A DNA stretch of 64,000 nt from a virus (IMGVR_UViG_3300014019_000001:52400-116399), one strand, 5' to 3'; counted from the stretch's first letter, positions 1,798 through 59,302 are shown. Notes: generated by a model from the letters alone, not told the origin. Made by a program: numbers and translations.

Positions 1798-1985
1798 TTG
1801 CTTTCTTCCTTGAGGCAGCTCGGGCAAACGTCTTCCCGGAAATTGACGTCCGGCTCGCAAACGATGCGCCAGCCGGCCTCTTGCGCGGCTCTCTTGGTCT
1901 CGCCGTCGTAGGGCCAGGGAAGGTTCAGGCTGAACGTCGTCACCTTGCATCGATCACACAGAATGTATCGGCCGCCTTGGGGCAT
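1794..1985 (-). CDS. Small CxxC/CxxC zinc-finger-like protein
   Basis: CDRC...CPSC, 63 aa, TGATG-coupled. Confidence 0.65.
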   Translation of the reverse strand: MPQGGRYILCDRCKVTTFSLNLPWPYDGETKRAAQEAGWRIVCEPDVNFREDVCPSCLKEESK

Positions 1986-2260
1986 CAGAATCTCCCGTAT
2001 TTGGGGCTGGAGCGCATCGCGTCAGCCTCGGCTAGACGGAGCGCCCGTTCACCGGAACGGTGCTCGCGGACTCCCTGTGCGCCTTCTGCGAGGTAGATTT
2101 CGTGTTCCTCTTCCGTATCGAAGGCGTCGGTGCAGAAGCTGCATGGAGGATTGCCCGTCCAGCACGAACATCCACGGTCGAGTAACTCGCCATCCGGATC
2201 TTCGAATATCTTTCTCTCCGCTGGCGCTCCGTGATGAGCTGGAAGATTAAGTCGCATCAC
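1985..2260 (-). CDS. Cys-cluster protein with C-terminal PKYGRF motif
   Basis: CSCWTGNPPCSFC; ends MRSSPKYGRF. Confidence 0.7.
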   Translation of the reverse strand: MMRLNLPAHHGAPAERKIFEDPDGELLDRGCSCWTGNPPCSFCTDAFDTEEEHEIYLAEGAQGVREHRSGERALRLAEADAMRSSPKYGRF

Positions 2261-2266
2261 TCGACC

Positions 2267-2470
2267 TCATTGGAGAGCGACCCGGAGCGAGATCCTCTGG
2301 TCTTCGTTACCGACGAAGTGAATGACCTGCTCGACCATGTGAATGTCGCCTCGTGGCGCGCTGTCGATGATCAGGATCTCGCCGGCTCTAGGAACGTGTT
2401 TGAGATTGACCTCCCAATACCGCCCGGTCAGTTCCTGCGTATCGCTGACCTCTTCCACTTGAACCTTCAT
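2267..2470 (-). CDS. Hypothetical protein
   Basis: ATG coupled to upstream stop at 2470. Confidence 0.55.
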   Translation of the reverse strand: MKVQVEEVSDTQELTGRYWEVNLKHVPRAGEILIIDSAPRGDIHMVEQVIHFVGNEDQRISLRVALQ

Positions 2471-2910
2471 CAATCGACACTCCACGTTTTCACGATTTCT
2501 TCCACGGATTCGAACTTCATTGGCGCCTTGCCTTCCTCGATCACCGTGAGGATGTCGCTGCAATGGATCAGGGCGAAGCGCATACGGCGCTCGGCATTCG
2601 TGATCCACGGCTGCGTCTTGAGCGGCAGGTGGTTCATGGGCCAGGAGGCGACATCGCGGATCTTCTCGGCATCATGCTTCATACGCTCCTGATAATGGGC
2701 GTCACGGATTTGCTTCTTCTTCAGGGCGCGCTCGTTGAGGAGATCGGCGAGACGCCGGCCGGGATCTGCCGCCCGTGCTGCTTCTTGCGTCAGGGCACGC
2801 ACGTCCTCGGGGCTGAGAAGCATGAATTCGCGGAGCTCGTCCTTGATATGGGCATGCGCTGCTTTCCAGATATCGGGGCGCTGGTGCCAGGGGAGGGTGT
2901 TGTTAGACAT
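2470..2910 (-). CDS. Hypothetical protein
   Basis: 146 aa in tightly packed operon. Confidence 0.65.
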   Translation of the reverse strand: MSNNTLPWHQRPDIWKAAHAHIKDELREFMLLSPEDVRALTQEAARAADPGRRLADLLNERALKKKQIRDAHYQERMKHDAEKIRDVASWPMNHLPLKTQPWITNAERRMRFALIHCSDILTVIEEGKAPMKFESVEEIVKTWSVD

Positions 2911-2913
2911 GGT

Positions 2914-3210
2914 TCAGTCCACCGGAGCGAGTTGTTTCCAGATCCAGATGTCGCCGGCCTCGTCTTCGTAGCAGGTCTCGCCGTTTTCATCGGGAAGCGG
3001 CACCTGTGTATCCCAATGGACCTTGCTCTCGCCGGCGTAGCAGGGCGTGCCGTCAGGCTTGAAGCCAGACACCGCTGCCGTCACAAGGACATGCTCGCAG
3101 ACGCCGACGATCACAGCGCCGGTTGGCGATTTGTAGCGGCTTGGCTCCTGAAGATCCGCGAGATAGTTGTTCAGCGCGTCCTCGACCTCGGTCTTCGTGA
3201 CCATTTCCAT
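2914..3210 (-). CDS. Hypothetical protein
   Basis: 98 aa in operon. Confidence 0.6.
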   Translation of the reverse strand: MEMVTKTEVEDALNNYLADLQEPSRYKSPTGAVIVGVCEHVLVTAAVSGFKPDGTPCYAGESKVHWDTQVPLPDENGETCYEDEAGDIWIWKQLAPVD

Positions 3211-4550: not shown

Positions 4551-4576
4551 TCCATTTCCTCTCTCGTTTTGCGCTA

Positions 4577-4795: not shown

Positions 4796-4797
4796 GA

Positions 4798-6207: not shown

Positions 6208-6403
6208 TGCGAATCCTCGCTATTTCAGCCTGAACCTCTTCCAGTTGCTGTCTCAGCATCCGCTCTCGAACCATCAGCGGCGCCAGGCGCTCAAGCTCGC
6301 CAATGACCGTCTCTGCGATCTTTTGGTGGTCGTCGAAATCATCGGGAACGATTGTGGTGAACTCGATTCTGTGGTGCATGCGAACGGGCTCGTAATTGGC
6401 CAT
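6200..6403 (-). CDS. Hypothetical coiled-coil protein
   Basis: 67 aa, coupled on both sides. Confidence 0.6.
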   Translation of the reverse strand: MANYEPVRMHHRIEFTTIVPDDFDDHQKIAETVIGELERLAPLMVRERMLRQQLEEVQAEIARIRNG

Positions 6404-6885
6404 CAGAACCTCCCGAAGTTGGGGTTTGCTTGCTTCATGTCGGCGGTGAGCGCATCGACCAGCCGGGCGTGCATCTGCTCGCCGATGACCTTTGCCATCG
6501 CTAGGGAAGGGTATTCTTTGCCGACGCGGCGGTCTCCGACCCTGATGGTCCAGAAGCTGCGAGGTCCGGCTGCAGGGTTGGGGTTGCGCGGATCGTGCGC
6601 GTCACCTCTCACCCGGATGATGTCGACCTTGGCTGCCGGAAACACCTCGTTCTCGAAGGAGAAGTCTGGCGGCGATGGCGGCAGAGATCGCGGCCAGGTG
6701 AAGGACAGCTCATCGATCCAAAAATGCGTGATAGCCTTCCCGGAAAGCGTGCCGCGATCCTTGAGCTTCGTCAGGGTGAAATCGGACTTAGGATAGGGCG
6801 TTGGCAGTGCCATATCGATGATCGGCAGTTTTCTCATCTTGCCGAGGTCGTCTTCAAACTCCAGGGAGTAGCTGGTCAGAGCCAT
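6403..6885 (-). CDS. Hypothetical protein with C-terminal PNFGRF motif
   Basis: Ends MKQANPNFGRF. Confidence 0.7.
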   Translation of the reverse strand: MALTSYSLEFEDDLGKMRKLPIIDMALPTPYPKSDFTLTKLKDRGTLSGKAITHFWIDELSFTWPRSLPPSPPDFSFENEVFPAAKVDIIRVRGDAHDPRNPNPAAGPRSFWTIRVGDRRVGKEYPSLAMAKVIGEQMHARLVDALTADMKQANPNFGRF

Positions 6886-27578: not shown

Positions 27579-27610
27579 CTTTCTCTCTCTTCCTTTCGTG
27601 AGCGCTCTAA

Positions 27611-27656
27611 GAACTAAGCGCTTACTTATGTTGCTATAGCAGACGAGAAGAGGGTT
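27611..27656 (-). promoter_or_regulatory. Phage-type promoter plus operator
   Basis: CAACCC-N11-GCTATAG...TAAGTAAGCGCTTAG. Confidence 0.8.
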
Positions 27657-27696
27657 GCTCACGGAATCTCGAGGCTCTTGATTCCGTGAGCGAGCG

Positions 27697-33529: not shown

Positions 33530-34096
33530 TCAGGCCGCGCGCTGGGCCAAAATTGCCTGAACCTGCTTGAACGCAGGGGTGACGATGCCGGCGTGACAGA
33601 TGGCTGCGGCGTCGGCCAGGTGCTCGTTCTTGAGGGTCGGCACAAGGACGCCTGCGCGCTTGGTCGTCAGCCAGGGCGCGTTCGGATAGGTCTCCGATGC
33701 CCACTCGATCATTTCCTGCTTGCTGGCGGTCCTGGTGCCGACGGTGCACTTCTTCGTCTCGATAGGCGCCACTTCGAGCAGGGGAATCTTGATGCCGGCA
33801 TAGATGCCGATGGTGATGCCGAACCCAAGGACGGCGTTGTAATCTTGTCCGCCGGAAGGCACCTCGGCGAAGCAGACGGTCACGTCCTTCAGGAAGTCGT
33901 CGACACCACGGGCAATTTCCTGCGCCCGGAGAAGATTGTCGGATGAGGCGCGCACGGACTTGGACTTGTCCTTCTGGGTCTCGATCAGCTTCAAATCGAG
34001 AATATCGAGCGCACCCGAGGTGATGTCGAAGGACATCTTGGTCATGCCGAAATTGCGCAGCGAGCCGTCGAGCCCCGCGATGATGAGTTTGGACAT
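33530..34096 (-). CDS. RuvC-like Holliday junction resolvase
   Basis: AGLDGSLRNFG, FAEVP, NEHLADA. Confidence 0.8.
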   Translation of the reverse strand: MSKLIIAGLDGSLRNFGMTKMSFDITSGALDILDLKLIETQKDKSKSVRASSDNLLRAQEIARGVDDFLKDVTVCFAEVPSGGQDYNAVLGFGITIGIYAGIKIPLLEVAPIETKKCTVGTRTASKQEMIEWASETYPNAPWLTTKRAGVLVPTLKNEHLADAAAICHAGIVTPAFKQVQAILAQRAA

Positions 34097-36787: not shown

Positions 36788-37141
36788 TTACTCCTTCGCG
36801 TTGATCGCAGCGGTCATGTTGCCAGTCGCTGCAGCCTGTTGAACGTTGGTCTGATGCGTGGGACGAGCCGCAGGGGCCTGCTTTGTCGCTGGCGCCGACG
36901 CGGCCTTCTTCGCGCTGCGAACGACGTCACGTCCACGGCCGCGATCGCCGAACTCGCGCATGTCCTGCTTGATGATCTGGACGCTGGCGGCGTCCTTCTT
37001 CCGATACATTTCGGCGGTGGGAAGCGGCAGGTCGCAGATGGTCTGCTTGATCAGCTCCGTGCGCTCGCCCGTCTTCCTTCCCTTCTCGTCGAAGGTCGAA
37101 ATCAGATGCTTGTTCTCCAGAATGACCGTGTAAAGCTGCAT
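36788..37141 (-). CDS. Hypothetical protein with C-terminal AAATGNMTAAINA motif
   Basis: 117 aa after operator at 37152-37169. Confidence 0.7.
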   Translation of the reverse strand: MQLYTVILENKHLISTFDEKGRKTGERTELIKQTICDLPLPTAEMYRKKDAASVQIIKQDMREFGDRGRGRDVVRSAKKAASAPATKQAPAARPTHQTNVQQAAATGNMTAAINAKE

Positions 37142-37206: not shown

Positions 37207-38307
37207 TCAGGCTTCTTCGTAGACGCTCTCGGCGGCCTTCAGCACGTCGGCGGCGGCCGTCTTCACGGCGTTCCGATCGATATGCTGTGGAAGCTCCATC
37301 TTGTCGCCGAATGCCGCGACCGACTGAGCAAGTGTCAGCGTCTTTCCGTTCTGGACAGCCTGCCCGGTGCGCTGGTTGATCTGCGCCGGCGGCACCTGAA
37401 TGGACGTGCCGAGCGCGCCATGCGTCTCGAAGAACGTTTTCAGGTCCTTCATGTCCTCGGCCGTCATCTGGCTGCCACGGAAGCGGATATAGTTGCCGTC
37501 GCACTGGAGCTTGATTTCATCCTCATCACGCCCGGAAACGTCGATGAACTTCGGCGCGTGGCTGTCCATGAACTTGATGTTCTGATGGTCGACCAGGAGG
37601 AAGCCCGCCTTGGTGCCGACATCGCCCCAGGTCTGGTGCGTGGTCGCGCCGATCGACACGATACCGCCGGGCATGACTTTGTGATTGTGGTAGTGGCCGG
37701 CGAAAATCCGGCGGAAGCCGAACTGCGCGAGACGCGCGTCAGAAATTCCGTGGCCGGCCGGCATGCCCGGCAGCACGCCGTCGATGCCTGCGTGAATGAA
37801 CACGTCGATTTCATCGACGCCATTGCCAACAGCGCCGGCGAGTTTGCCGAGATCGTTCAGGAGCGCCTCGTCGTTGGAATGCCAGGGAACGAACCCCAGG
37901 TGGTAGCCATCATCCGTCGTGATCAGGCGGGGTTCGTTGATGACGGTGAAGGTTCCGTGTTCCGAGAACGTCTGGGAGAGCGTCTGGATCGCCGAACCGA
38001 GCTCCGACGTTTCCTTGCCTTTCAGGTCGTGATTGCCGGGGATCGCCAGGATCGAAACACCCGAGTCCAGGATCTTCCGGATCGCGTCCTGCGTCGGGTT
38101 CAGCACCTCCGGGTCGATCGAGCCGCGAACATGGAAGATATCGCCAGCGATGACCATCACCTTGCCGCCGGCCTTTTTCAGCTCGGCTGCCGCGCGCTCC
38201 ATTTCGCTGAGGATGATACCGAGACGATTATTTACCCCGTCGCTCCGGACATGCGAAAACAGGGACCAGTTATGGGCGTGCAGGTCGGACAGGACTGCAA
38301 AAGTCAT
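37207..38307 (-). CDS. sbcD: SbcD/Mre11-like nuclease
   Basis: SDLH, AGDIFH, GNHD, GHYH. Confidence 0.92.
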   Translation of the reverse strand: MTFAVLSDLHAHNWSLFSHVRSDGVNNRLGIILSEMERAAAELKKAGGKVMVIAGDIFHVRGSIDPEVLNPTQDAIRKILDSGVSILAIPGNHDLKGKETSELGSAIQTLSQTFSEHGTFTVINEPRLITTDDGYHLGFVPWHSNDEALLNDLGKLAGAVGNGVDEIDVFIHAGIDGVLPGMPAGHGISDARLAQFGFRRIFAGHYHNHKVMPGGIVSIGATTHQTWGDVGTKAGFLLVDHQNIKFMDSHAPKFIDVSGRDEDEIKLQCDGNYIRFRGSQMTAEDMKDLKTFFETHGALGTSIQVPPAQINQRTGQAVQNGKTLTLAQSVAAFGDKMELPQHIDRNAVKTAAADVLKAAESVYEEA

Positions 38308-40327: not shown

Positions 40328-40540
40328 CTAGTCGGATACCTCCGCGAGGATCTCCACCTCACCGACCTTCAGATCACGAACCGGAAGGTCTTTGATCGCC
40401 TCCGACCACTCGATCAGTTCCGCCGGGGTCTGGAGCGCGATTTCTCGCGCTTCTTCCTCGGTCGCAGCCTCGACGTTGAGCGTGGCGTGCTGGATCTGCT
40501 CGATGCGTCGGACAAGGACGATCTCGTAAAGCTGCTTCAT
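40328..40540 (-). CDS. Hypothetical protein
   Basis: VEAATEEEAREIA; coupled to recA. Confidence 0.6.
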   Translation of the reverse strand: MKQLYEIVLVRRIEQIQHATLNVEAATEEEAREIALQTPAELIEWSEAIKDLPVRDLKVGEVEILAEVSD

Positions 40541-41667
40541 GCCGCTTCCTTGACGTCATCCTCCTCGGGCGCGTCGGTCGAGATATCGACTTCGGCGACC
40601 ACCGGCGGTTCGTATTCCGGCGGCAAGAGAGCCGTCAGCTTCTTGAAGCCGCTTTCGCCTTCAGCTTCGATTTGGCGAGCAAGCGCCTCGCGGCCGATCT
40701 GTTTGCCTTCCCAGAGGACGTGGCCGGCCTTGACGTTCTTGTCGTTGCCCTTCTCGTCCTTGTAGGTCGTCGGCAGCAGCCCCTGTTCGTTGAGGAACTC
40801 GACCAGGCTGCGCTCACGGTCGAAGCGACCAGTGCCGTCCTGCTGGAACATAAAGCGCCAGGAGGCAGTCTGGAACGGCCGATTGACCTTGTTCTTCCGG
40901 AAGCCGCCGGTCACTTCCATACCGATGACGTCCTTGCCGAGCTTGATCTGCGAGGCCGACAGCCACAGGCGCTGCGAGAAGTAGAACTCGGGCGCGTCGC
41001 CGCCGGTCGTCTTGCGCGGATCGCCGAACGTGACGCCGATCTTGTTGCGCATCTGGTTGAGGAAGATCGAGCAGACGCCGTAGTCCTCGGAGATCTGCGC
41101 GACCGACGGGAAGTGCGTGGAGGTGCAGACGGCCAGCTCCAGCTTGTCGCGCATGTTGCGCTTGTCGATTTCACGCAGATTGCCCTTGTCGTCGTAGAGG
41201 AGGGCATGCGGCGTCATAGCGGCGAGCGAGTCCCAAACCCAGCAGATCGGCGCATCCTTCGGGATCAGTTTCTTCTCGCGGATCGTGCGCACGGCCTGGG
41301 CGAAGATGGCGATCGACTGTTCGAAGGTCTCGGGCTTGCGATAGACGAGGCGGCCGGGGGTCGTGTCGAGGCCGAGACGCGGCGCCAGCTTCAGCGAGAA
41401 GGAGCGCTCGTGGTCCATGAAGCCGGCGATGCCGCCGAGCTCCTGCGCGGCTGCCATGGCGCGCGTCGCGATGGCAGTCTTGCCGGAGGAGGGCGGGCCG
41501 GCGATTTCGATCATGCGACCGACCGGGAAGCAGCCCGTCCAGGAATTCGACGATGCGTTGTTCAGGGGCGGGAAGCCGCTGTCGAGCCAGTGCTTGACCG
41601 TTGCCTCCTCATCGTTGTCGCCGATGACGCCAAAGAGAGTTTTGGCGATGTCACTTGCAGAAGCCAT
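40537..41667 (-). CDS. recA: RecA/UvsX-like recombinase
   Basis: GRMIEIAGPPSSGKT, DHERS, WDSLAA, FLNQMR, TTGG.A..FY. Confidence 0.92.
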   Translation of the reverse strand: MASASDIAKTLFGVIGDNDEEATVKHWLDSGFPPLNNASSNSWTGCFPVGRMIEIAGPPSSGKTAIATRAMAAAQELGGIAGFMDHERSFSLKLAPRLGLDTTPGRLVYRKPETFEQSIAIFAQAVRTIREKKLIPKDAPICWVWDSLAAMTPHALLYDDKGNLREIDKRNMRDKLELAVCTSTHFPSVAQISEDYGVCSIFLNQMRNKIGVTFGDPRKTTGGDAPEFYFSQRLWLSASQIKLGKDVIGMEVTGGFRKNKVNRPFQTASWRFMFQQDGTGRFDRERSLVEFLNEQGLLPTTYKDEKGNDKNVKAGHVLWEGKQIGREALARQIEAEGESGFKKLTALLPPEYEPPVVAEVDISTDAPEEDDVKEAA

Positions 41668-45465: not shown

Positions 45466-48400
45466 TCATGGAAGAAGATCGACAACGGAGTGGAAGACAT
45501 CCTCCATGTTCTTCTGCTTGTCAGGGGAGAAATAGATTTCGCCCGGAGAGAAGCCGATCACGATGTTCGCATCCAGCTCCTTCGAATAAACGACCTTGCC
45601 CGCCTGGTCGGATGCCTTGCCTTTGAAGTCCGGGAAGAACTGCCGAACCACCGATGAGCCGAGCAGCACGATCACCGGCGGCTTCAGGATTTCGATCTCC
45701 CGCTGGAGATAGGGTGCGTAGGTGGCGATCTCGTCGGCGGTGAGCTGTTTCTCCGCTTTCGTGCGCTTCACCAGTGCCGTCCAGTAGGCGTCCTCGCGTG
45801 CAAGGTCATGAACAGCCATCGCGTCGATCACCGCGTTGACGGACTGACTCCAGCCCATCATGCCGATCTCCTCTTCCTGACTGCCGGGGCAGTCCTGAAC
45901 AAGCATGAACCTTGCGGTGCGCCCGAAGCTCGGCTTCACAGGCATGCCGTCGCTCGTGCCGCCGGGGCCGTGCCGCTCGCGATACTCGGCTGCCAGTGCG
46001 CCGATATCGTTCTTGGCCTCCTTGCCCATGTCGAGGTCACGATTGACCGGAACGTTGGCCGTGATCAGACCGGGAATCAGCTCGATGAGATCCCTGATCC
46101 TGGAGGGATCGGTCGCAGGGACTTGTCCCGGCTCGATGCGAGAGAAGGCTCCAACTTTGTCGAGCGCGTCCTGGTGGCGCACGTTGCATCGCCGCTTCTC
46201 GACGCGCGCAATGAAGTCAGCCTTGTTCTTGAACGGACCGGCTTTGCGCGCCTCCAGAATGGCGCCGGTCGTGTTGCCGGAAATACCCTTGATGCGCTGG
46301 AACGGGATCACCAGACGAACGTCTGTGGCGATTTCGAAGCGATCGGTGGAGATGTTGATGTCGGGCATAGAGACGTCGATCCCGAAGCGTGAGGCGTCAC
46401 GAATGATGCCCGGCAGCTTGTCCTCGTCCATGAGCGTGAGCGCGGCGGCAAAGAACTCGACAGGATAGTTGGTCTTCAGCCACATCGACTGATAAGAGAT
46501 CAGCGTGTATTCGACCGAGTGGCTCTTGTTGAAGCCGTAGCCGGCGAAGCCCTCGATCTTGTCGAAAAGCGCGCCTGCCCATTCCGGATCGCAGCCGATT
46601 GTCGCCACACAGCCGTCAACGAACTTGCCGCGCTCCTTCTTCATCTCCTCGGGGAGCTTTTTGCCCATGATCTTGCGGAGCTTGTCAGCGTCAGGCGCCG
46701 AGTAGCCAGCGATCGCACGCGCCACCTGCATGACCTGCTCCTGGTAGACCATAACGCCGAAGGTCTCCTTCAGGATCGGCTCCATGAGCGGATGATCGTA
46801 TTCCACCACCTCATAGCCCTGCTTGCGAAGATAGAAGCTCTCCATCATCCCGGACTCCATCGGACCTGGGCGATAGAGAGCCGTGGCAGCCGTGATGTCC
46901 TCGAATGTAATCGAGCCGTCCTTGCCGAGCTGTTTGAGGAGATTGCGCATGCCGCCGGACTCAAACTGGAAGACAGCGGTCGTCAGCCCTGTGGCGAAGT
47001 TCTCCAGGACCTTCTGGTCATCGAGCGGAATGCGCATCAGGTCCGGCCGGCGGCCGTGTCGCTCCTTGATATATTCCGAGGCGAGATTGATCAGGTCGAG
47101 CGTGTTGAGGCCGAGAATATCCATTTTGACCAGACCCTGGTCCTCGACGATGCGCTTGTCCCAGTTGACGACGGCGCCTTCCTTACGCCGCTCGATGACG
47201 GCGCGCTCCACGAGATCCATACCACCGACGATGACACCAGCGGCGTGCTGGCCGTAGTTGCGCATGGTGCCTTCCAGGCGCGTCATGATCGGCCACCAGT
47301 CCGGGTGCTTCTTGGCGAAAGCGTCGATCTCAGGAACTTGCTCGGCGCAGGCGGGGAGGGGGACGTTGGCGCCGTGCAGCTTTGGCACGTATTTCGAGCA
47401 GACGTATTCCTTCTCGGGCAATCCGATCACGCGGCTGACGTCACGGATCGAACTGGCAGCCGCCAGCGCTGCGAAGTTGGAAACGCCTGCCACGCGCTCG
47501 CGCCCATACTTCCGGTCGAGATACTCGAAAATCTCGTGCCGGCGCTGGGACATGAAGTCGAGGTCGGCGTCAGGCAAGTCGATACGGTCGGGGTTGATGA
47601 AGCGTTCGAACAGCAACCCGAACCGAATCGGATCGCAGTCCGTGATGCCCATCAGGTAAGCGACCAGAGAACCACCGACACTGCCGCGCCCAGGGCCAAC
47701 CAGGATGCCGTTTTGCTTTGCAAAGCGGACGACATCCTGGACGAGAAGGAAGTAGCCCGAGAACTTGAGCTTCTGGAGGACCGAAAGCTCGTATTTGAGG
47801 CGCTCCTTGTAAACTGACTGGAGCTCGTCCTTTCCGGGGAGGTGGCCGAAAACCTCTCCCGCAAATCGCTGCGCCCAGCCTTTCTTGCATTCCGCGACCA
47901 CGGCCGCGAATTCGTCCTCCGCCATTTTCGGGAGCGTGACCTCGGCTTTGGACCACTGGTAGCTGACTGCATCGACAAGATCCTTCGTGTTGGCGAGCCC
48001 TTGCTTGAAATGCGCGCCGGCGCTCGCGTTGCCTCGTTCGACAAAGCGCCGGGACGCCTTGCCCACCTCCTGAGCCAGTTCCTTCACACCGAGAATGTGG
48101 AAGTCGCGGTTGTGGGTCGAGCGGTGCCAGGCATCGCTGACCTTGTTGTTGTTGCAGATGGCAGCCATGATCTCGGCTGCGTCAGCTTCACCTTCGCGAT
48201 AGAAGGCAGGCCGGACGACGAGCGGCTCTGCGCCGCGATCGATCGCTTCCACGGCCAGCTCGTTCAGGCGTGCGAAATAGGGGGTGTCGATCGGGATCAT
48301 CGCCGCATAGACGTGCCCAAGACGCGACTGGATCTCCTGCTGGATCGCTACCGCCTCGGGATGCGCCGTCAGGGGAGCAACGTCGCCAAGCGTGATGCGA

Positions 48401-48828
48401 AGATCGTCCTTGGTGAGTTTGTCGAGCTCCGCATAGAGATCGGCGAGATCGAGGCGCGCGACGTAATAGAACCTGGGTTCCTCGTTCGCCAGCGTGAGCA
48501 GCCGGAAGATCGCCTTCAGACCCTTCTCCGACAGCACGTAGGCTGTGGCGTGATAGATCGGCTGGCCCTTTTTGTTCTTTTTGTCGGTCTTGTCCGCGCG
48601 CCAGGTGTGATCGTTGACCAGACGGAGACGCACGCCGATCACCGGCTTGATCTCCGCTTTCTTGCAGCGATTGGTGAAGTCGATCATGCTGGTTACGGTC
48701 ATCGTGTCCGTGACCGCCACAGCCTTCTCACCAGTGGCTTTGGCGACCTCGACCAGGTGCTCTGTCTGGAGAATGGACTCTCCGATCGAGAAGTCGGTTC
48801 TTGCAGCGAGAATGGAATACATGGTCAT
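45466..48828 (-). CDS. dnaE: DNA polymerase III alpha subunit with degenerate PHP and C-terminal UDG-like domain
   Basis: GPGRGSVGGSL, FERFINPDR..LPDADLD, QHAAG, KMDILGL, FQFES, YQEQ, YGFNKSH. Confidence 0.95.
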   Translation of the reverse strand: MTMYSILAARTDFSIGESILQTEHLVEVAKATGEKAVAVTDTMTVTSMIDFTNRCKKAEIKPVIGVRLRLVNDHTWRADKTDKKNKKGQPIYHATAYVLSEKGLKAIFRLLTLANEEPRFYYVARLDLADLYAELDKLTKDDLRITLGDVAPLTAHPEAVAIQQEIQSRLGHVYAAMIPIDTPYFARLNELAVEAIDRGAEPLVVRPAFYREGEADAAEIMAAICNNNKVSDAWHRSTHNRDFHILGVKELAQEVGKASRRFVERGNASAGAHFKQGLANTKDLVDAVSYQWSKAEVTLPKMAEDEFAAVVAECKKGWAQRFAGEVFGHLPGKDELQSVYKERLKYELSVLQKLKFSGYFLLVQDVVRFAKQNGILVGPGRGSVGGSLVAYLMGITDCDPIRFGLLFERFINPDRIDLPDADLDFMSQRRHEIFEYLDRKYGRERVAGVSNFAALAAASSIRDVSRVIGLPEKEYVCSKYVPKLHGANVPLPACAEQVPEIDAFAKKHPDWWPIMTRLEGTMRNYGQHAAGVIVGGMDLVERAVIERRKEGAVVNWDKRIVEDQGLVKMDILGLNTLDLINLASEYIKERHGRRPDLMRIPLDDQKVLENFATGLTTAVFQFESGGMRNLLKQLGKDGSITFEDITAATALYRPGPMESGMMESFYLRKQGYEVVEYDHPLMEPILKETFGVMVYQEQVMQVARAIAGYSAPDADKLRKIMGKKLPEEMKKERGKFVDGCVATIGCDPEWAGALFDKIEGFAGYGFNKSHSVEYTLISYQSMWLKTNYPVEFFAAALTLMDEDKLPGIIRDASRFGIDVSMPDINISTDRFEIATDVRLVIPFQRIKGISGNTTGAILEARKAGPFKNKADFIARVEKRRCNVRHQDALDKVGAFSRIEPGQVPATDPSRIRDLIELIPGLITANVPVNRDLDMGKEAKNDIGALAAEYRERHGPGGTSDGMPVKPSFGRTARFMLVQDCPGSQEEEIGMMGWSQSVNAVIDAMAVHDLAREDAYWTALVKRTKAEKQLTADEIATYAPYLQREIEILKPPVIVLLGSSVVRQFFPDFKGKASDQAGKVVYSKELDANIVIGFSPGEIYFSPDKQKNMEDVFHSVVDLLP

Positions 48829-49358: not shown

Positions 49359-50002
49359 CGTGTCATGCTCCTGCAAACGCGCTCGCCGAGGCCGCGCAGT
49401 TCCTTCATGATTTCAGTTCGCTCTTTGTTCGACGCATCCATGAAGTCGAAGATGGTCGACGCAGCGAGACGGACAGTTGCCGGACTGTTGATGCCCATCT
49501 GCTCGCGCCCGTAATCGGACTTGCGCTTGAGGCAGATGATCTCCTTCATCAGCTCGTCGGGCTGCTCGCGCAGCAGCGTGACGAACAGACGAGCGCGGGG
49601 CTTGAGGTTGCGGATCGCGTATTCGAAGTGCTGGTCTTCCTCGAAGGCATTGAAGTCGTTCCGATCATCCGGAATGACGTCGGCCAGGGTTGCGCGACCG
49701 GTATCCTCGCCAACTGTGGAATTGAGCGAGACCGCCAGAACCTCGGTGTGCCGGCGCTCGATGTGCTTTTCGATTTCTCGATTGATATGCATCCGCATGC
49801 CGTTCATGAGATAGGCTTGGAACGGCACGCCCGTCTCCGGCTCGTAGCTGTCTGACGCCTTGATCCAGGCGATCTTGAGCTCCTGCTGGATGTCTTCCAG
49901 GCTGAAGGCGCGGCCGCCGTCTCCGGCAGCACGCAGACGCCTCATCACACGATGCGAGAAGGACTTGATCGCCTTCTCGCTTGCTTCGGGTTCGCGCAAC
50001 AT
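49355..50002 (-). CDS. Sigma70-like factor (region 2 present, divergent C-terminus)
   Basis: LEDIQQE..IAWIKASDSYEPETGVPFQAYL...MR; SLN. Confidence 0.65.
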   Translation of the reverse strand: MLREPEASEKAIKSFSHRVMRRLRAAGDGGRAFSLEDIQQELKIAWIKASDSYEPETGVPFQAYLMNGMRMHINREIEKHIERRHTEVLAVSLNSTVGEDTGRATLADVIPDDRNDFNAFEEDQHFEYAIRNLKPRARLFVTLLREQPDELMKEIICLKRKSDYGREQMGINSPATVRLAASTIFDFMDASNKERTEIMKELRGLGERVCRSMTR

Positions 50003-51228
50003 CAGCCGAAGATCCTCTGTGCGAACTCGTCGACCGTCTTTTTGTCGATGCGCGACAAGCGGTTTGCGAAGGCGAGCTTGAGCCCCTGGCGCCAGTCACC
50101 GCCGAAATACATGCCGAGGTCGGCTGCGTTGATCAGCTCGCGCGGGGAGACGGTCATCGAGATCCCGCCTTCCTTGAACTTGTCGCGCACCGCCTTGGCG
50201 AACTTCACGATCTTGCCGGCAGTGGGCTTGTCGACGCCGGTTTTCGAGACGAGAATCAGCTCCTCTGTCGCCGGATCCATGTATTCGACTTCCTCGACAA
50301 TCGGGAAGCGCGAGTAGTTGGCGGCGTTCTGGATCAGGGTGCCTTGATAAAGACCGGTCTCGTCGCCGACGCCATTCGTGTTGCCGGTGGCACAGAAGCG
50401 GAAGTTCGGATGCGGCTTGATCACGCGGAACTCAGGCGGCGCGTCCTTGATGACGAGCGGCTTGCCTTCAAGCACCGGCTGGTAAACGGCTGTGACCGAC
50501 GGCATGGCGAAGTCGTATTCGTCGGCGCAATAGACCCAGCCGTTCAGCATAGCCATCGGAAGCGGCCCAAGCTGAAACTCGGTCACGGTCTGCGGCTTGA
50601 TGATCTTTTCCTTCTCGCCGGAAGCGTTCAGCACCTCTTCCTCGACGAATTTGGTGCGCACGACATACTGGCCGAGGATATGCGCTTCCTCGGTGTTGAT
50701 GGTGTGCTGGACGCGGCTGAACGGACGACCTGTGCGAGCGCAGACCTGTTCGAGAACGGTCGTCTTGCCGGTGCCATGAAAGCCCCAGAGATACACCGGC
50801 TTGTTGATTTCGAAGCCGATGATGACCTTCTTCACGAGGTCGATGTTGAACACGTAGTCGGGATCGACCATCTGGATATACGGCTTGGCATCCTCGGAGG
50901 CGTCGTTGACGACCTGGATCTCGATCGGATTACCGATAGAGCTGCGCGCGGCGCGCGCCTCGCCGAAGCCAAAGACTTCGTGCAGATAGTGCTTCTGCCC
51001 CGGCGTCACGACGGCATTCGCAGCCTGGGCCTTGGCAGCGCGTGACTTGTCGAGGGCGTCCATTGCCCGTTTCGACAGAATGGGCGCATCGGGAAACTCC
51101 TTCTGGTAGCGCTCAAGCGTCCAGTCGGGGTGATTGTCGCGAATGTGAACCTGGATGGAGTGAACACGGGCGCCGTCGATTTGGCAGATGATTTTCCCGT
51201 CAGCGTTCGTGTCGGCGGCGTCAGCCAT
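50002..51228 (-). CDS. CobS/MoxR-like AAA+ ATPase with N-terminal C/H finger
   Basis: GFHGTGKTT, ADEYD, FCATGNT, SRF, SPREL. Confidence 0.88.
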   Translation of the reverse strand: MADAADTNADGKIICQIDGARVHSIQVHIRDNHPDWTLERYQKEFPDAPILSKRAMDALDKSRAAKAQAANAVVTPGQKHYLHEVFGFGEARAARSSIGNPIEIQVVNDASEDAKPYIQMVDPDYVFNIDLVKKVIIGFEINKPVYLWGFHGTGKTTVLEQVCARTGRPFSRVQHTINTEEAHILGQYVVRTKFVEEEVLNASGEKEKIIKPQTVTEFQLGPLPMAMLNGWVYCADEYDFAMPSVTAVYQPVLEGKPLVIKDAPPEFRVIKPHPNFRFCATGNTNGVGDETGLYQGTLIQNAANYSRFPIVEEVEYMDPATEELILVSKTGVDKPTAGKIVKFAKAVRDKFKEGGISMTVSPRELINAADLGMYFGGDWRQGLKLAFANRLSRIDKKTVDEFAQRIFG

Positions 51229-51346: not shown

Positions 51347-54133
51347 TCAGTTCGTCAGGATCGCCTTGAGCTCCTTCATGACCTCGGTCGGAAGGTCCTC
51401 GATCCGGTTGAGAACGATGTGGTTTCGATAGAAGCGACGGACGGCGGTATCCATGATGCCGATGCCGACGAGATCGATTCCAAGCTTTTCGAGCTTCTCG
51501 ACCGTCTGCTTGAGGTGCCCGGCCGCGTTGGCGGCGCCGGAGGGCTGTCCGTCAGACAGCACCAGCATCACCTTGCGCTTCTCGCGTCGCTTCAAGAGGC
51601 GGATCGCCGCGTATTCGAGGGACTCGCCGTCGACATTCGTGACCATGCCGCGCTGTGCGTTGGCGGCGTAGGCGATGCGCTTTTTGACCTCGGCGTTGAT
51701 GCGCTCGTCAAACTCCTTGTAGATGGGCATGACGATCGGAACCGTCCGATGGAAGCGAACGCCCTTTGCAGCGTGGTTGTAGATGTCCTGGTTCATCTCC
51801 TGCATCGCTGAGCGCGAGCCCTTGCCGCGATGATCGCCTGTCGTGAAGCCAAGCACCTCGCTGGAGATGTTGACGCGCTCCAACGTCGAGGAGAGAGCAT
51901 AACCCGCCACCATCGCCGTTCGCATCTTTGCGCCACCCATCGAGCCGGAGTTGTCGATGAGCAGCGTGACTGCCGTATCCTTCGACTTGTGCTCCTGCTT
52001 GCGATTGAACAGGCGATCGTCGTTCGTGGTGATCCGATGCAGGGAAGGGGCGTGCAGGCGGCCGGAGCGATAGCCCGGCACCTTGATGACGTGCGACTGG
52101 CTCGCCATCATCCGCTCGATGTCCTTCTGCATCCGCCCGGTCATGGCGCGCGTCTGTTCTTCCAGTTCGGGAACCCACTGCGGGGCGATCTCGGGCGCTT
52201 TGAGCACCTCGATTCGGTCGAACTCGCGGGTGTAGACGTTGTAATCGTTGTCGGCGAGGAGATCGACGGCTTCGTTCGCGATCAGGATTGCGATCTGGCT
52301 CGACACGTCGGCCTTCTCGAAGGCGTTATCCTCGAAGTCGAACATGGACTTGCCGAGACCGTTACCCACGCCACCGCCGTCGCTCTGATCATCGTCATCG
52401 GCCTCACCGATCTCGCCCGCCTCGTGATCGTCGGTCTGGATCGCTATACGATCGCCTTTCGACCCGTCGCCCGGCTCCTCGTTTCCATCTTCGTCGTCTT
52501 CGCCGGCCGAGGCGGGCTCGCCATCCTCGTCAGGATCTTCCTCGTCCTGACCCGGCGCATCCTTTCCGTTATCGTCTCCGTCGTCAGAAGCCTCGGCCTC
52601 TTCTTCGGCGCCGTCGTCAGCGTCGCCATCATCATCTTCCTGGCCTTCGCCGTCTTCTTCGCTCTCGTCAGCGCCATCTTCCCCGTCGAGAAGATCATCG
52701 TCTGCGTCGCCTTCGCGCTCGCCGTCATCTTCCTCGGAACCATCACGCCCAGAGCCCTCATCTTCATCCTTCTCAGGATCTTCGTCTTCGGCTCCATCTT
52801 CATCGCGATTCCCGTCGCCATCGCCTTCAGCGTCATCGGACCCCTCGCCATCACCGGCAGAGTCGTCTTCCTCTTCACCGCCGTCGCTCTGGTCATCGTC
52901 ATCGGCTTTTTCCTGTTCGTCGTCGCCACCAGACGGTTCACCGTCCTGGCCGCCCTCAGCTTCGCCAGCGCCGTCTTCAACCTCATCGTCTTCGTCCTTT
53001 GCGCCCTTGCCAGACTTGCCAGGCTGAGACTCGCCGTCATCGCTGTCGGAATGGTCTCGCTCGCCATCTCCGTCGCCCTGTTCAGCTTTCTTGTCGGGCT
53101 TGTCCTGGGATTGACCAGCGGATTGCTGCTGATCCTGGTTGCTGCTGTCGCCAGCGCTCTCGTCGGGCTCACCATCACCGCCGCCACCAGGCTGCGGCGG
53201 AGGATCGAGATACTCGAATGCGCCGACCTTGGTGACTTCGCCGTGCTCCGTCTTGACGGTCACATCCACGACACCAGCGACATGCGCCGGTGTTTCGACA
53301 AGGATGGTTTGCTGGCTCTGATGGGCGATGATCTTCGCAATCGAGCCGTCGAACTTGACCCATTCGAGATCGATGAAGTGCGTGCCCTTTACTGCAACAG
53401 GCTCGCCGCCAGGCGTAAAGCCCTGATTCGGCTCGATGGCGGTGATCGTGGGCGCCGGCATGACGGGATGGAGAATCCCGTCGAGGACCTTGGCAATCTC
53501 AAGCGTCTCGCGCGTGGTGCGAACCTTCGGCAGATCCTTCTTCACCTTGTCCGGCAGCTTGTCGACGAGTTCCTTCACCAGGGGGTTATCCCAGTGCTTC
53601 TCGTCGTCCATGTAGTCCTGGAATTCCGTGTGACCGGCCAAGGCGCGCATGACGACGACGAGAAGGTAGAGGAACTTCTCCTTGTCGGTTTTCGCTGAGT
53701 CGACAGCCGGCCTGGTGATCTTAGCGATGAAGTGTCGGCGGAGATCCGCGATGTTCTTCTTCGAGCCGGGGAAGATGCGCTCCATCTCCCGCTCGATCAT
53801 CGTGTCCTCGATGATGTTGTGATAGGTGCGCAGGCGCTGGATCTTCTTGTCCTGCATCTGCTGCGGCGTGAGGCGATAGCCTGCACACCAGTCCCAATCG
53901 GTGATCAGGACATGGCCGACCTCGTGGTCGATGAAGCCCTGGATTGCGCGAATGAAGCCAGCGTCGGCCGTGTCCGGAATGTTGGGAATGTTGATGCGCT
54001 CGGGCTTACGTGTCGTGGGGTTTGCGACGACGTATGCCTGAGCGCCTCGCTGCGTGACCGTCAGACCCTTACCTGTCAGCATCGGCACGAGCTTCGTGAC
54101 CACTTCACGAAGCTCAACAATCTCACGGTTCAT
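51347..54133 (-). CDS. CobT-like protein: HExxH N-domain, IPT/TIG insert, acidic tract, C-terminal vWA
   Basis: DHEVGH, NIIED, DNSGSM, LSDGQP, GIGI. Confidence 0.88.
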   Translation of the reverse strand: MNREIVELREVVTKLVPMLTGKGLTVTQRGAQAYVVANPTTRKPERINIPNIPDTADAGFIRAIQGFIDHEVGHVLITDWDWCAGYRLTPQQMQDKKIQRLRTYHNIIEDTMIEREMERIFPGSKKNIADLRRHFIAKITRPAVDSAKTDKEKFLYLLVVVMRALAGHTEFQDYMDDEKHWDNPLVKELVDKLPDKVKKDLPKVRTTRETLEIAKVLDGILHPVMPAPTITAIEPNQGFTPGGEPVAVKGTHFIDLEWVKFDGSIAKIIAHQSQQTILVETPAHVAGVVDVTVKTEHGEVTKVGAFEYLDPPPQPGGGGDGEPDESAGDSSNQDQQQSAGQSQDKPDKKAEQGDGDGERDHSDSDDGESQPGKSGKGAKDEDDEVEDGAGEAEGGQDGEPSGGDDEQEKADDDDQSDGGEEEDDSAGDGEGSDDAEGDGDGNRDEDGAEDEDPEKDEDEGSGRDGSEEDDGEREGDADDDLLDGEDGADESEEDGEGQEDDDGDADDGAEEEAEASDDGDDNGKDAPGQDEEDPDEDGEPASAGEDDEDGNEEPGDGSKGDRIAIQTDDHEAGEIGEADDDDQSDGGGVGNGLGKSMFDFEDNAFEKADVSSQIAILIANEAVDLLADNDYNVYTREFDRIEVLKAPEIAPQWVPELEEQTRAMTGRMQKDIERMMASQSHVIKVPGYRSGRLHAPSLHRITTNDDRLFNRKQEHKSKDTAVTLLIDNSGSMGGAKMRTAMVAGYALSSTLERVNISSEVLGFTTGDHRGKGSRSAMQEMNQDIYNHAAKGVRFHRTVPIVMPIYKEFDERINAEVKKRIAYAANAQRGMVTNVDGESLEYAAIRLLKRREKRKVMLVLSDGQPSGAANAAGHLKQTVEKLEKLGIDLVGIGIMDTAVRRFYRNHIVLNRIEDLPTEVMKELKAILTN

Positions 54134-55400: not shown

Positions 55401-55401
55401 C

Positions 55402-56664: not shown

Positions 56665-56668
56665 AACG

Positions 56669-56697
56669 AAAAAAGGGGCGCATTGCGCGCCCCTGTT
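56669..56697. terminator. Terminator between convergent repC and ligase
   Basis: AAAAAA-GGGGCGC-ATTGC-GCGCCCC. Confidence 0.7.
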
Positions 56698-56766
56698 GAG
56701 AGAGAAATCGCCTTAACCCCGGCGACGAGGGAACTTATACGACTGTTATAGCGGAATTTTTGCCGT

Positions 56767-58209
56767 TTACGCCGCGAATTTTTCCTTGTCCTCGATTTCG
56801 CCGGTCTTGTCGTCGCGGAACCGCTTGAAGCGGGGGTGACGAAGAGAGCCGTCGGGCGTGACCTCGTGGTATTCGACCTCGACCAGGCGACCGAGAAGCT
56901 TCATGCCTTCCGGGATCTCGTCCACGGTCAGATCGAAGCCTGGCTTGAAGCCGACATGAGGATCGTGAATGCCGATCGCTTTCGCGTCGTGCTGCCACAA
57001 CTGCCAAAGTTCCTCGCGGAGCTCGGCAGACAGACCACCGCCGACGCGCACCGAGACGCCTCTGCGATCGAGGATGATACCACCTGTCGTCTTCTCGTTG
57101 TCCTTGCCGACTTCGCCATTGTAGAAACCGATGATCGGCAGATCTTCGGTTTCCTCGGCCTTGATCTTGAGCCAGCCGTAGGACTTCTTCTTGTCGTAGA
57201 GCCCGTTCGGATCCTTGACCATCGCACCTTCAAGGCCGCGCGCCTGGAATTTGGCGTAGAGATCGTGAATCTCCTGGTGGCTGTTGACGAGGTATCGGGG
57301 CGTCTTGGTGATGATGGTGTCATCGGCGTGAGACACGAACGCGGCCACCAGGTTTCGACGTTCCATATAGGGCTTTCCGACAGAGCCGGTTGCGTCAAAA
57401 TCAGCGTAGCTCATCAGATCAAAGACGTTGAAGAGCGCGTCCTTGGCAACCTCGCTGGTGCGCCGAAGCGCGCCTGTCTCCGCGAAATTGTCGTTCACGG
57501 TCATTTCGCCGTCGACCATGAAATTGAGATCCTGGCGGGCATATCGCGCCAGATCGCCGGGACGTGTGGAGAGCGTGGAGCAAAGTTCCCGGTGGTTGTT
57601 GGCCTGGAGGGCTCTCAGCGCCGTCTCGATCATCGGTTCGACCAGGTGTTCGGCCGCCGGCGCGCGCTTGCCCGACCGAGTGAAGAAGCCGCCATTTCCG
57701 TTCCGACACAGGAACGTGAAACGATAGCCATCGAGCTTCGGCTCGACGACCTGGGGCCAGCTCTTGATGCGCTTTTCCTCGTAGTGGTGAGCGCGCATGA
57801 CGGCGAAGACCGGGATGAGATCCGGCATGACCTTCTGGATGGTCGATTCAGCGATCCCACAGCGCAGATCCTTGTTGAGGATGCGCCAGAGCAGCTCGTT
57901 CGCCGCCTCGTCCGACGCCTTGAGGCAAGTCGCGACCACATCGGCCGCCGCATTACCCGTCAGCTCACGCTGCGCCAGCTTCGTCAGGACGCTTTCCACG
58001 CCATTAATCTCGAATTCCAGCTTTTCGCCGAGGTTCGATGCATGCCGGGTCGGCTTGATGCCGTAGGTGATGAACGGATCGTATGCCCATTTCACCACGA
58101 AACGACCCATTTCGGACTCCAGGAGCTTCGCCAGCAGCGCCTCCTTGCCGTTTCGCGACCCTTCTGCCGCGATCTGCTCGATCAATTCGAGCGTTTCCTT
58201 GCCATTCAT
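56767..58209 (-). CDS. ATP-dependent DNA ligase
   Basis: EPKLDGYR, DGE, VFD, EGAMVK, WLKIK, SLRHPRF..FRDDK. Confidence 0.95.
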   Translation of the reverse strand: MNGKETLELIEQIAAEGSRNGKEALLAKLLESEMGRFVVKWAYDPFITYGIKPTRHASNLGEKLEFEINGVESVLTKLAQRELTGNAAADVVATCLKASDEAANELLWRILNKDLRCGIAESTIQKVMPDLIPVFAVMRAHHYEEKRIKSWPQVVEPKLDGYRFTFLCRNGNGGFFTRSGKRAPAAEHLVEPMIETALRALQANNHRELCSTLSTRPGDLARYARQDLNFMVDGEMTVNDNFAETGALRRTSEVAKDALFNVFDLMSYADFDATGSVGKPYMERRNLVAAFVSHADDTIITKTPRYLVNSHQEIHDLYAKFQARGLEGAMVKDPNGLYDKKKSYGWLKIKAEETEDLPIIGFYNGEVGKDNEKTTGGIILDRRGVSVRVGGGLSAELREELWQLWQHDAKAIGIHDPHVGFKPGFDLTVDEIPEGMKLLGRLVEVEYHEVTPDGSLRHPRFKRFRDDKTGEIEDKEKFAA

Positions 58210-58223
58210 ATGTAATCGCTTCC

Positions 58224-58775
58224 TTATGCGTTGATCGCCGCAACGAGGTTGCCGGTTGCGGCTGCTTCGTTGATGTTGGCGTTGGGCGTTGCGCTCTCGG
58301 CCGACTTGACCGGCTTGCGCCTGAGCGAGATCGCGGTTGTCTCGAAGGGCTGACCACGCCTCGAGGACTCGCCAGGTGCCGTCTTCAACTGCTCATCGAT
58401 GCGCTGATTGGCGGTGGCGAGAAGAGCGCGTTCAGCGTCCGGCACCCGAAGATCGTTGAGCACTGACTCCCGCATGAGAACGGGCCGGATGCGTTCCAGC
58501 ACAGGCTTCATGATCTTGCCCTCTTTCGGGGTCAGCGAGCCGTGGTGGTCGTTCGTCCAGGACTTATCGAAGCAATATTTCCGGACCATTTCGGCCGCCG
58601 GGCACTTGTTGCAGTGCATGGCCGCCTGACAGCCGCGTCGCACCTCGGGTGCGCGACCGGCCCAGACGAGATCACGAAGCTTCACGCATGCGCCCATGCG
58701 TGTCTTGGCGCCGAAGATCGGGCAGGTGAATGTAAACTGGTTGTCGTCCCGCAGGCTTTCGTAGACTGTCGGCAT
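58224..58775 (-). CDS. Cys-rich protein with C-terminal AAATGNLVAAINA motif
   Basis: CP...C...C...CNKCP. Confidence 0.75.
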   Translation of the reverse strand: MPTVYESLRDDNQFTFTCPIFGAKTRMGACVKLRDLVWAGRAPEVRRGCQAAMHCNKCPAAEMVRKYCFDKSWTNDHHGSLTPKEGKIMKPVLERIRPVLMRESVLNDLRVPDAERALLATANQRIDEQLKTAPGESSRRGQPFETTAISLRRKPVKSAESATPNANINEAAATGNLVAAINA

Positions 58776-59302
58776 CAGAATCTCCCAAATTTCGGATTAC
58801 CCTTCATCGACGCCAGCTCAGCCTCGCGCTGAGCAGCCTCGGCGCGCGCAACTGCGTCAGGGTCGATCGTGACGTGGCGCGTCTGATTGCCGATGAAATT
58901 GTCATCGTCGTCACGGTTGGACTCAGGCTCGCGCATGCCGTCTGTGCTGTAATTCGGGTCGAGGTGCTTGGCGTTCGCTGGCCCGATCTTCGGAAAGACA
59001 GTGCGCCCGATCACCAGCGGAAGCTGCGCGGCGCTCTCGACCGTAACGATCTTGGAATCGGTGAGACGGTAGCTCTTTGAGCCCGACTGACGATGATTGA
59101 GCTCCTTCTGGTAGTCGGCTTCCGCATCGATCTGACTCGGAAACGCCTTTACCCTCACCTGCCCCGTTGCGCCTTTCGCGCCCCAGCGGCGAATGACGAT
59201 TGCCCTGCCCTGCTTGTTCACCACGAGGGTCAGGAAATAGTCCTTCGTTCCGCCCTTATGGGACAAGGACGCCTTCACGACTTCCATAGGATATTCAGAC
59301 AT
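58775..59302 (-). CDS. WGR-domain protein with C-terminal PKFGRF motif
   Basis: KDY.L...RRWGAKGATGQ...AE..Y.K; ends MKGNPKFGRF. Confidence 0.75.
   Translation of the reverse strand: MSEYPMEVVKASLSHKGGTKDYFLTLVVNKQGRAIVIRRWGAKGATGQVRVKAFPSQIDAEADYQKELNHRQSGSKSYRLTDSKIVTVESAAQLPLVIGRTVFPKIGPANAKHLDPNYSTDGMREPESNRDDDDNFIGNQTRHVTIDPDAVARAEAAQREAELASMKGNPKFGRF

Follow-up and report, generated by a model that had tools for sequence, protein, structure and literature searches.

The right-hand 64 kb of a rhizobial phage-plasmid genome of 116,399 bp and 59.7% G+C (IMGVR_UViG_3300014019_000001:52400-116399; this whole stretch of 64,000 nucleotides is referred to as the window) encode four unrelated proteins whose translations end in one and the same peptide, M-x3/4-[NS]-P-[KN]-[FY]-G-R-F. 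We find that this tail recurs in related phage-plasmids in the general form [Y/M/L]-x-x-[N/H]-P-x-[F/Y/W]-[G/A]-x-[F/W]-COOH, that it is carried by many proteins with dissimilar bodies, and that selection acts on the tail peptide, at the protein level. From these sequence patterns we consider the tail a probable short linear docking motif, which would be read by one partner.

A common tail on unrelated proteins

An initial annotation of the window had picked out the four open reading frames (ORFs) and their common ending, and the translations match at the coordinates it gave; it was silent on strand, and all four lie on the minus strand. Its description of the protein bodies as unrelated and of the tail codons as differing at synonymous positions likewise holds, the four proteins falling into separate BLAST families and the differences being present in the DNA. 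The WGR domain that it assigned to one of the proteins is recovered by Pfam (PF05406, E 2.9e-6). Met occupies position -9 or -10 in all four tails (the last residue being position 0), a place that is mostly taken by Tyr in tails of the type found in the phage RHEph10. A six-frame scan of the whole 116,399 bp found [FYW]-G-x-[FYW]-stop at the four ORFs only, and no internal occurrence of P[KNR][FYW]G.[FYW]. From the composition of the proteome (161 genes), 0.15 such tail ends would be expected, against the four observed (Poisson P ~2e-5); the bare four-residue pattern inside proteins occurs at about background level (44 seen, 33 expected).

Tagged proteins number from two to ten per genome in 15 related genomes or elements, as counted in whole-record scans for which reversed-pattern controls gave 0-2 hits in the set of Rhizobium phages and the IMG/VR contig G001. 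Rhizobium phages B1VFA, RHph_X66 and RHph_N1_10 carry nine, seven and eight tagged ORFs, respectively, and contig G001 carries four, all of them ending [FY]G.F. Further afield, tagged ORFs are found in Stenotrophomonas phage ANB28 (10, YG.W), in the IMG/VR contigs G048 and G049 (4 and 2, both WG.F), in SSU5-like phage-plasmids of E. coli and Klebsiella (2 each, W[GA].W), in Salmonella phage SSU5 itself (SSU5_042 and SSU5_076, ..WATW) and in Pseudomonas phage nickie (two small ORFs). Searches of bacterial assemblies with the phage CobS protein located three more carriers, namely contigs of Ancylobacter rudongensis (G002:C18; 5 tagged ORFs, [FY][GA]RF), Roseospira marina (G003:C15; 8, WG.[FW]) and Chitinibacter tainanensis (G004:C8; 3, Y[GA].W). 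These three contigs, of 96-114 kb, show 27-76% identity to most core genes of the phage and probably represent phage-plasmids, belonging to the same supergroup, that reside in these bacteria. No tagged ORF turned up in a whole-record scan of Rhizobium phage RHph_I4, a more distant relative, and pattern matches in G045 and G047 were set aside as chance hits in unrelated phages.

Relatives close to the window's proteins lie on 113-119-kb contigs in assemblies of Shinella, Rhizobium and Pararhizobium, and RHEph10 encodes repC, parA and parB. The tag-bearing group matches phage-plasmids described earlier (PMC7969092), namely the relatives of RHEph10 and the SSU5 supercommunity, and has hosts among the Alpha-, Beta- and Gammaproteobacteria. 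The tail was initially thought to be specific to the phage at hand, a notion that has to be given up, as it spans the supergroup of RHEph10-like and SSU5-like phage-plasmids. The densest tagged array that we have seen is in ANB28, where eight consecutive small ORFs of 65-138 amino acids (aa) end Y-G-x-W (record positions 100370-102740); the first four tagged ORFs of the Roseospira element are also consecutive, ending WG[LT]W (G003:C15:34039-35722).

The tail is confined to this phage group in a tail-profile search of 5.8 billion proteins. In 41 genomes of Ancylobacter's order, P-x-[FY]-G-x-F-stop gave 47 matches and a control pattern 45, with no recurring orthologue or locus bearing the tail. 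The Ancylobacter chromosome has four stop-ending matches in 4.4 Mb outside the element contig, and the 114-kb element has four pattern matches (five tagged ORFs by six-frame scan). The pattern is enriched in the phage relatives and stands at no more than chance level in host genomes, which is the difference that the initial annotation had proposed to look for. Mimicry of a host motif is unsupported, given the control-level counts in the host order and the restriction of the profile search to the phage group.

Two genomic positions are occupied by a tagged protein throughout the eight elements compared, and likewise in G048, G049 and SSU5. At the first, here called slot A, the gene order is DnaB, primase, tagged protein, a protein of 155-190 aa and ligase; at the second, slot B, it is SbcD, a small ORF, SbcC, tagged protein, RuvC-like resolvase and ribonucleotide reductase (RNR). 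Both slots are kept from Rhizobium to E. coli, Klebsiella and Salmonella SSU5 (where SSU5_042 and SSU5_076 fill them). The enterobacterial slot proteins are 247-264 aa long, and their BLAST similarity to the rhizobial ones is gone, the tail being kept. Metagenomic slot-B contexts maintain the order SbcC, tagged protein, a 188-aa protein and RNR, and on one metagenomic contig three tagged ORFs, all ending ..WGLF, stand in a row.

Conservation of the peptide

Carriers diverge in their bodies far more than in their ends. In families 1-3, body identity is 0.30-0.34 and identity over the last four residues 0.68-0.83. Searched by phmmer against 1.84 billion representatives, the slot-B protein gave 126 clusters at 50% identity, a large unannotated family of which the tail is the most conserved feature: 113 of 125 representatives end [FYW][GAS].[FYWLM], and in most of the others a single residue follows the motif. 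An alignment of 122 slot-B sequences has Gly(-2) as its sole invariant column, the last Phe present in more than 90% and YxxNPxFGxF as its consensus tail; the consensus of 30 tails likewise reads YxxNPx[FW]Gx[FW]. Position -1 is variable (R/M/A/S/L).

The aromatic class at position -3 is uniform across unrelated families inside every genome examined. In seven Rhizobiales-type genomes the -3 residue is always F or Y. In Roseospira, E. coli, Klebsiella, SSU5, G048, G049 and contig L099 it is always W, and Chitinibacter and ANB28 pair Y at -3 with W as the last residue. In a quickly built tree of the slot-B family, parsimony counts at least 18 class changes from F/Y to W, only four of them on supported branches.

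Whether the peptide or the underlying nucleotides are conserved was judged on 36 tagged genes from eight genomes. Among these, all four Gly codons (GGG, GGA, GGC and GGT) are used, with Ala instead of Gly in seven tails, and Arg at position -1 is encoded by AGA, AGG, CGC, CGG, CGT or CGA. Stop codons are TGA in 19 genes, TAA in nine and TAG in eight, and the end of the gene overlaps the next start in only about 15. The motif thus persists without a coupled downstream gene in more than half of the sample. Because codons, stops and spacing vary while the aromatic and Gly residues stay, selection acts on the peptide.

These data also bear on translational coupling. Each of the four tagged genes of the window finishes with GG(G/A)AG(A/G)TTCTGATG, the next start lying inside the overlap, and the TGATG stop that the initial annotation ascribed to all of them is there, each ending TTC TGA TG. 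Conceivably, the tail could then be a by-product composed of the Shine-Dalgarno (SD) sequence GGGAG or GGAAG, a TTC spacer and TGATG, or else a nascent-peptide signal for re-initiation, the more so as the genome does make SD-driven ends elsewhere (K-E-A-A-stop from AAGGAGGCNGC(A/G)TGA). The codon, stop-codon and spacing data of the 36 genes rule this out, and we regard such an origin as extremely improbable. Relatives encode the peptide by GGC CGC, GGG CGG, GGT CTG, GCC ACC and others, so that the Gly-Arg codons are often not SD-like; their tagged genes are followed by gaps of 9 to >90 nt or end in TAG or TAA with no adjacent start. In RHEph10, where seven ORFs end [YM]xxx[NH][PE]x[FY]G[RM]F, a gap of 74-97 nt follows three of the seven (annotated coordinates). 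Arg is replaced across whole lineages, by Ala, Gly or Thr in B1VFA and X66, by Ser or Thr in the enterobacterial elements and by Leu or Met in Roseospira, with the aromatic and Gly positions kept. Moreover, an SD sequence cannot account for the upstream N-P-x and Y/M positions. The coupling signal entertained in the initial annotation is therefore not sustained by the relatives.

A separate class of C-termini may be mentioned here. Ala-Ala ends are over-represented, in 16 of 161 proteins of this genome and 23 of 154 of RHEph10; examples in the window are the genes at 25044-27662, 31166-33454 and 40537-41667, all on the minus strand. About seven of the 16 are K/Q-E-A-A-stop ends, which arise from AAGGAGGCNGC(A/G)TGA with the next start overlapping or adjacent, and which are a Shine-Dalgarno by-product with the overlapping start of the next gene.

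Carriers, their neighbourhood and alternative roles considered for the tail

With tails removed, the tagged proteins fall into about 20 BLAST-unrelated families. The WGR domain is the only match in Pfam and PHROG searches of the bodies, and an ESM Atlas search with them returned nothing usable. The window's carriers and the genes around the two slots are listed in Table 1. For the 160-aa protein, which has no Pfam or PHROG match, the orthologues in RHEph10, N1_10, B1VFA, X66, G001 and the Ancylobacter element all bear the tail, and the orthologues of the WGR protein retain it too. Among the BLAST relatives of the 91-aa protein one carries it, in RHph_N1_10. The gene after slot B had been named a RuvC-like resolvase, an assignment upheld by the profile match in the table.

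Table 1. Tagged genes, genes flanking slots A and B, and the CobS/CobT pair, by position in the window
Feature	Positions	Strand	Evidence and remarks
Tagged protein, 91 aa	1985-2260	-	tail ..MRSSPKYGRF; Cys-rich CxC...CxxC stretch
Tagged protein, 160 aa, body family 2	6403-6885	-	tail ..MKQANPNFGRF; no known domain
RuvC-like Holliday-junction resolvase	33530-34096	-	PHROG 159, E 4e-29; start overlaps slot-B stop (TGATG)
Slot-B tagged protein, 159 aa	34096-34575	-	tail ..MHKDNPKFGRF; between SbcC and RuvC-like resolvase
SbcC-like ATPase	34668-36611	-	Pfam AAA_23/SMC_N; upstream of slot B
117-aa ORF between SbcC and SbcD	36788-37141	-	upstream of slot B
SbcD-like nuclease	37207-38307	-	Pfam Metallophos; upstream of slot B
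CobS, MoxR-type AAA+	50002-51228	-	Pfam AAA_5/CbbQ_C
CobT, TIG + vWA	51347-54133	-	Pfam CobT_C/VWA
ATP-dependent DNA ligase	56767-58209	-	Pfam ligase domains; downstream of slot A
Conserved 183-aa protein	58224-58775	-	synteny; downstream of slot A
Slot-A tagged protein, 175 aa, WGR domain	58775-59302	-	tail ..MKGNPKFGRF; primase on one side, 183-aa protein then DNA ligase on the other
DnaG-type primase	59381-60607	-	Pfam DNAG_N; upstream of slot A
DnaB-like helicase	60508-61839	-	Pfam DnaB_C; upstream of slot A

A second motif that may likewise serve docking, AAxTG[ND][LM]xAAI[NS], lies near the C-terminus of two to three proteins per genome. Among its carriers are the protein of about 185 aa that follows slot A (58224-58775), the 117-aa ORF (36788-37141) and RHEph10 rIIB.

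How might the tail be displayed? The slot-B protein (P0003), modelled by AlphaFold2 (AF2) from a deep alignment with a confidence score (pLDDT) of 92.4, is predicted to consist of an N-terminal helix, a six-stranded barrel (residues 30-105), short helices, a long helix (120-151) and an eight-residue tail. Foldseek searches of the PDB with this model gave no match at E 0.001 or better, and VIA-align finds a weak resemblance of the barrel to SH3/Tudor-like domains, at Z 5-6 only. The WGR protein (P0004; 11 sequences) has a core of pLDDT 85-94, a linker (121-147) at about 58-66, a helix at 148-167 and a tail at 58. The model places the WGR-protein tail on what would be a flexible arm, the usual picture of a docking motif. 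The two models differ in secondary-structure layout. The initial annotation had put a helix before each tail, and one is predicted at this place in both of the proteins folded.

A tail of this kind might alternatively serve the carrier itself, as a latch on its own body or as a strap that binds a second copy, a single C-terminal module having been captured repeatedly. The pLDDT of 84 for the slot-B tail would fit such packing, as would the covariation of position -3 with body columns 99, 39, 97 and 36, which give the highest mutual information (MI). Column 99 is size-compensating, with V/I accompanying F tails and A/T accompanying W tails. The MI signal between tail and slot-B body is suggestive at the level of sequence; a phylogeny-aware covariation test finds only four supported independent pairs and hence has no power. 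With carriers from separate BLAST families, and a different layout in each of the two bodies folded, one tail is unlikely to fit so many different self-pockets; model confidence for the WGR tail is low. Uniformity within genomes across families would also be left unaccounted for, unless all tails were read by the slot-B barrel, a special case of docking on one partner. We therefore hold self-association to be rather improbable.

The arrangement of the carriers speaks to a further alternative, namely that the tail is a degron by which early and accessory proteins are turned over jointly, whether by host ClpXP, Lon, FtsH or HslUV or by a phage protease or adaptor. Bacterial AAA+ proteases commonly choose their substrates by hydrophobic or aromatic C-terminal tails, many carriers are small, non-core proteins in early-type arrays (the eight in a row of ANB28, the four of Roseospira), and a gene for an HslV-like peptidase is present in part of the group. 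The two best-conserved carriers, however, sit inside replication and recombination operons throughout the supergroup, which fits stable subunits better, and neither the tagged phage records of E. coli and Klebsiella nor the Roseospira contig contain the HslV-like gene (PF00227). Furthermore, conserved host proteases do not predict lineage-specific aromatic switches, no host protein with such an end was seen in the 41 host-order genomes, and the motif is unlike ends of the -LAA type. A degron appears unlikely on these grounds.

Finally, the tail might be a generic anchor that inserts into the membrane interface or stacks its aromatic side chains on nucleic acid, with no specific protein partner. 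Trp, Tyr and Phe together with Gly are typical interfacial residues, and in several phages replication proteins act at the membrane. Against this stand the invariant Gly, the fixed spacing, the strict terminal position, the N-P turn and the hydrophobic residue at -9, which imply stereospecific recognition; the basic residue at -1 is not conserved, contrary to phosphate binding, and four residues would make a very weak membrane anchor. We consider an anchor very unlikely.

Candidate readers and comparison with known tails

We favour docking on a shared partner and envision the following scenario. The tail would be displayed after a helix, at the C-terminus or one small residue before it, and one partner would bind all tagged proteins. 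The partner's pocket would take up two aromatic side chains and require Gly or Ala between them, near the chain end. It would co-evolve with the tail and might thus be phage-encoded more likely than a conserved host hub; a co-evolving phage reader is favoured because the tail is uniform within genomes, differs between lineages and is absent from host proteomes. The two near-fixed carriers would be accessory proteins of a replication module (DnaB-primase-X-ligase) and of a recombination module (SbcD-SbcC-X-RuvC). The initial annotation had likewise suggested a tag read by one hub, and this fits a tail that is the most conserved part of about 20 families, changes in concert and is found in hosts at chance level. 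Of the hubs it named, CobS/CobT stays a candidate; as to a protease, one of the HslV-like kind is rejected as universal reader by the absences described above.

Several observations weigh against a common reader. Among the whole genomes sampled, the aromatic type may have switched independently just two or three times, which leaves concerted change resting on few events. One extra Ala or Gly follows the motif in nickie, whose slot A and B proteins (record positions 46773-47546 and 66459-68029) end ..WGAFG, ..FGGWA and ..IGGWA, and in about nine of 125 slot-B representatives, which indicates that the terminal carboxylate is not strictly needed. The fairly well modelled end of the slot-B tail could mean packing on its own protein. 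In addition, every genome has the full set of candidate readers alongside the tail, and presence or absence does not discriminate between them: DnaB, primase, ligase, DnaE, a DnaQ-like exonuclease, FEN, a gp32-like SSB, RecA, SbcCD, the RuvC-like resolvase, CobS, CobT and a few unknown proteins are universal in tagged genomes.

Within this set, a replication or recombination core protein (gp32-like SSB, RecA, DnaB, DnaE or SbcCD) is a possible, if tentative, reader. The CobT von Willebrand factor A (vWA) domain acting with CobS is a candidate that we put forward with slightly more reserve, the barrel of the slot-B protein itself would be a rather improbable one, and what expectation is left goes to a host protein, proteases included. 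CobN was not found in the genome, which makes CobS/CobT an orphan pair, and the metal ion-dependent adhesion site (MIDAS) residues of CobT (DxSGSM, GFTT and SDG) are invariant in eight elements from Rhizobium to Klebsiella. For pairs of a MoxR AAA+ protein and a vWA protein, a model has an extended client peptide captured at the vWA MIDAS site and then remodelled with the help of ATP (PMC7159879). Tails might accordingly be client handles, the CobT vWA domain gripping the chain end and CobS loading or remodelling the client on the replication or recombination apparatus, although we regard this proposal as doubtful. The phage CobT (51347-54133) also has an IPT/TIG domain, at residues 228-302, before its vWA domain.

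A description of the tail was not found in the searchable literature, and the window's four tagged proteins have no Pfam or PHROG family of their own. The case is marked by the depth of conservation, the two fixed genomic slots and the presence in the SSU5 group. The tail joins about 20 phage families lacking an assigned function into one functional set, and its ten residues offer a handle for fishing the partner as well as a rule for spotting members in new genomes. SSU5-like phage-plasmids are widespread in Salmonella, E. coli and Klebsiella and are genetically tractable. The tail is possibly a first clue to the function of phage CobS/CobT; were that reading true, phage 'cobalt chelatase' genes would gain a function outside cobalamin synthesis, and SSU5-like phage-plasmids a tag-based delivery of clients.

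How does the tail relate to other C-terminal peptides? Judged by sequence, it is closest in principle to the clamp tails of T4, to the bacterial clamp motif and to the tails of SSB and T7 proteins, and has the defining features of none of them. In T4 and RB69, gp43, gp55 and gp33 bind the clamp gp45 by their C-terminal tails. There, as here, unrelated phage proteins end in a short hydrophobic, aromatic peptide, and serve one phage-encoded hub. The sequence differs, being N-P-x-Ar-G-x-Ar (Ar, aromatic) in the phage-plasmids, DnaE, ligase and FEN of the window genome and of RHEph10 do not have the tail that such clients would be expected to bear, and a clamp gene was not found: the genome has no match to PF00712, Pfam and PHROG searches of the conserved unknown proteins gave no clamp domain (profiles of the gp45/PCNA type were not searched separately), and core proteins of 254 and 262 aa matched PDB sequences at E 0.1 or weaker only. 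The beta-clamp motif (QL[SD]LF, QxxLxF) and the PCNA-interacting peptide (PIP) box are similarly short, often C-terminal and aromatic or hydrophobic at the end, and are shared by many DNA-handling proteins; unlike them, the tail has no defining Gln (30 tails; 122 slot-B proteins) and an invariant Gly where a hydrophobic residue is expected, and host clients with the phage tail were not seen in the 41 host-order genomes. Because there is no DnaN-type gene, polymerase, ligase and FEN lack the tail, and the motif is without the residues that define clamp and PIP peptides, a sliding clamp is unlikely to be the reader.

The DnaE-type polymerase (45466-48828, minus strand) deserves a remark of its own. 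Its C-terminal domain (residues 971-1098), of the uracil-DNA-glycosylase superfamily, replaces the usual OB/tau-binding end, and it has no conserved internal Q..LF of the canonical clamp motif. Near the C-terminus, KQxxMxDVF is common to the alphaproteobacterial DnaE members and might be a clamp-binding motif.

Partners in ring complexes and proteases offer other comparisons. Every tail-bearing genome has CobS and CobT with intact MIDAS and no CobN client, in line with MoxR/vWA pairs; yet MIDAS ligands are usually acidic side chains, and the co-occurrence is uninformative, as all core genes co-occur. The HbYX tails of proteasome activators and the HslU tails on HslV resemble the phage tail as hydrophobic or aromatic C-termini that enter pockets of a ring partner. 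HbYX tails differ by their penultimate Tyr, in place of which R/M/A/S/L stands here, and an HslV-like gene is missing in several tagged elements. The ssrA-like degron of ClpXP ends in -LAA, whereas the phage tails end in F or W with no terminal Ala-Ala, and PDZ ligands are hydrophobic at 0 and -2, where -2 is Gly in all aligned slot-B proteins and Ala in a few Enterobacterial, Chitinibacter and Ancylobacter tails.

With regard to single-stranded DNA-binding proteins, the SSB of tag-bearing phages is gp32-like and terminates in an acidic ..LDGLIV or ..LDSI. RHph_I4, without the tail and without CobS/CobT, encodes a 355-aa SSB (record positions 73465-74532) ending DDNIPF, a classical bacterial SSB tip. 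Those SSB tips (DDDIPF) and the tails of T7 gp2.5 and gp4 combine a terminal aromatic residue with a chain end that is read by a partner's pocket in the replisome, and to that extent they parallel the phage tail. They are acidic and sit on the hub, whereas the phage tail is neutral or basic and sits on many clients, its positions -1 to -6 holding no acidic run (N/H, P, variable, Ar, G, R/M/A/S). Docking tails common to several proteins organise the replisomes of T4, T7 and bacteria, and a new shared tail likewise points to a hub.

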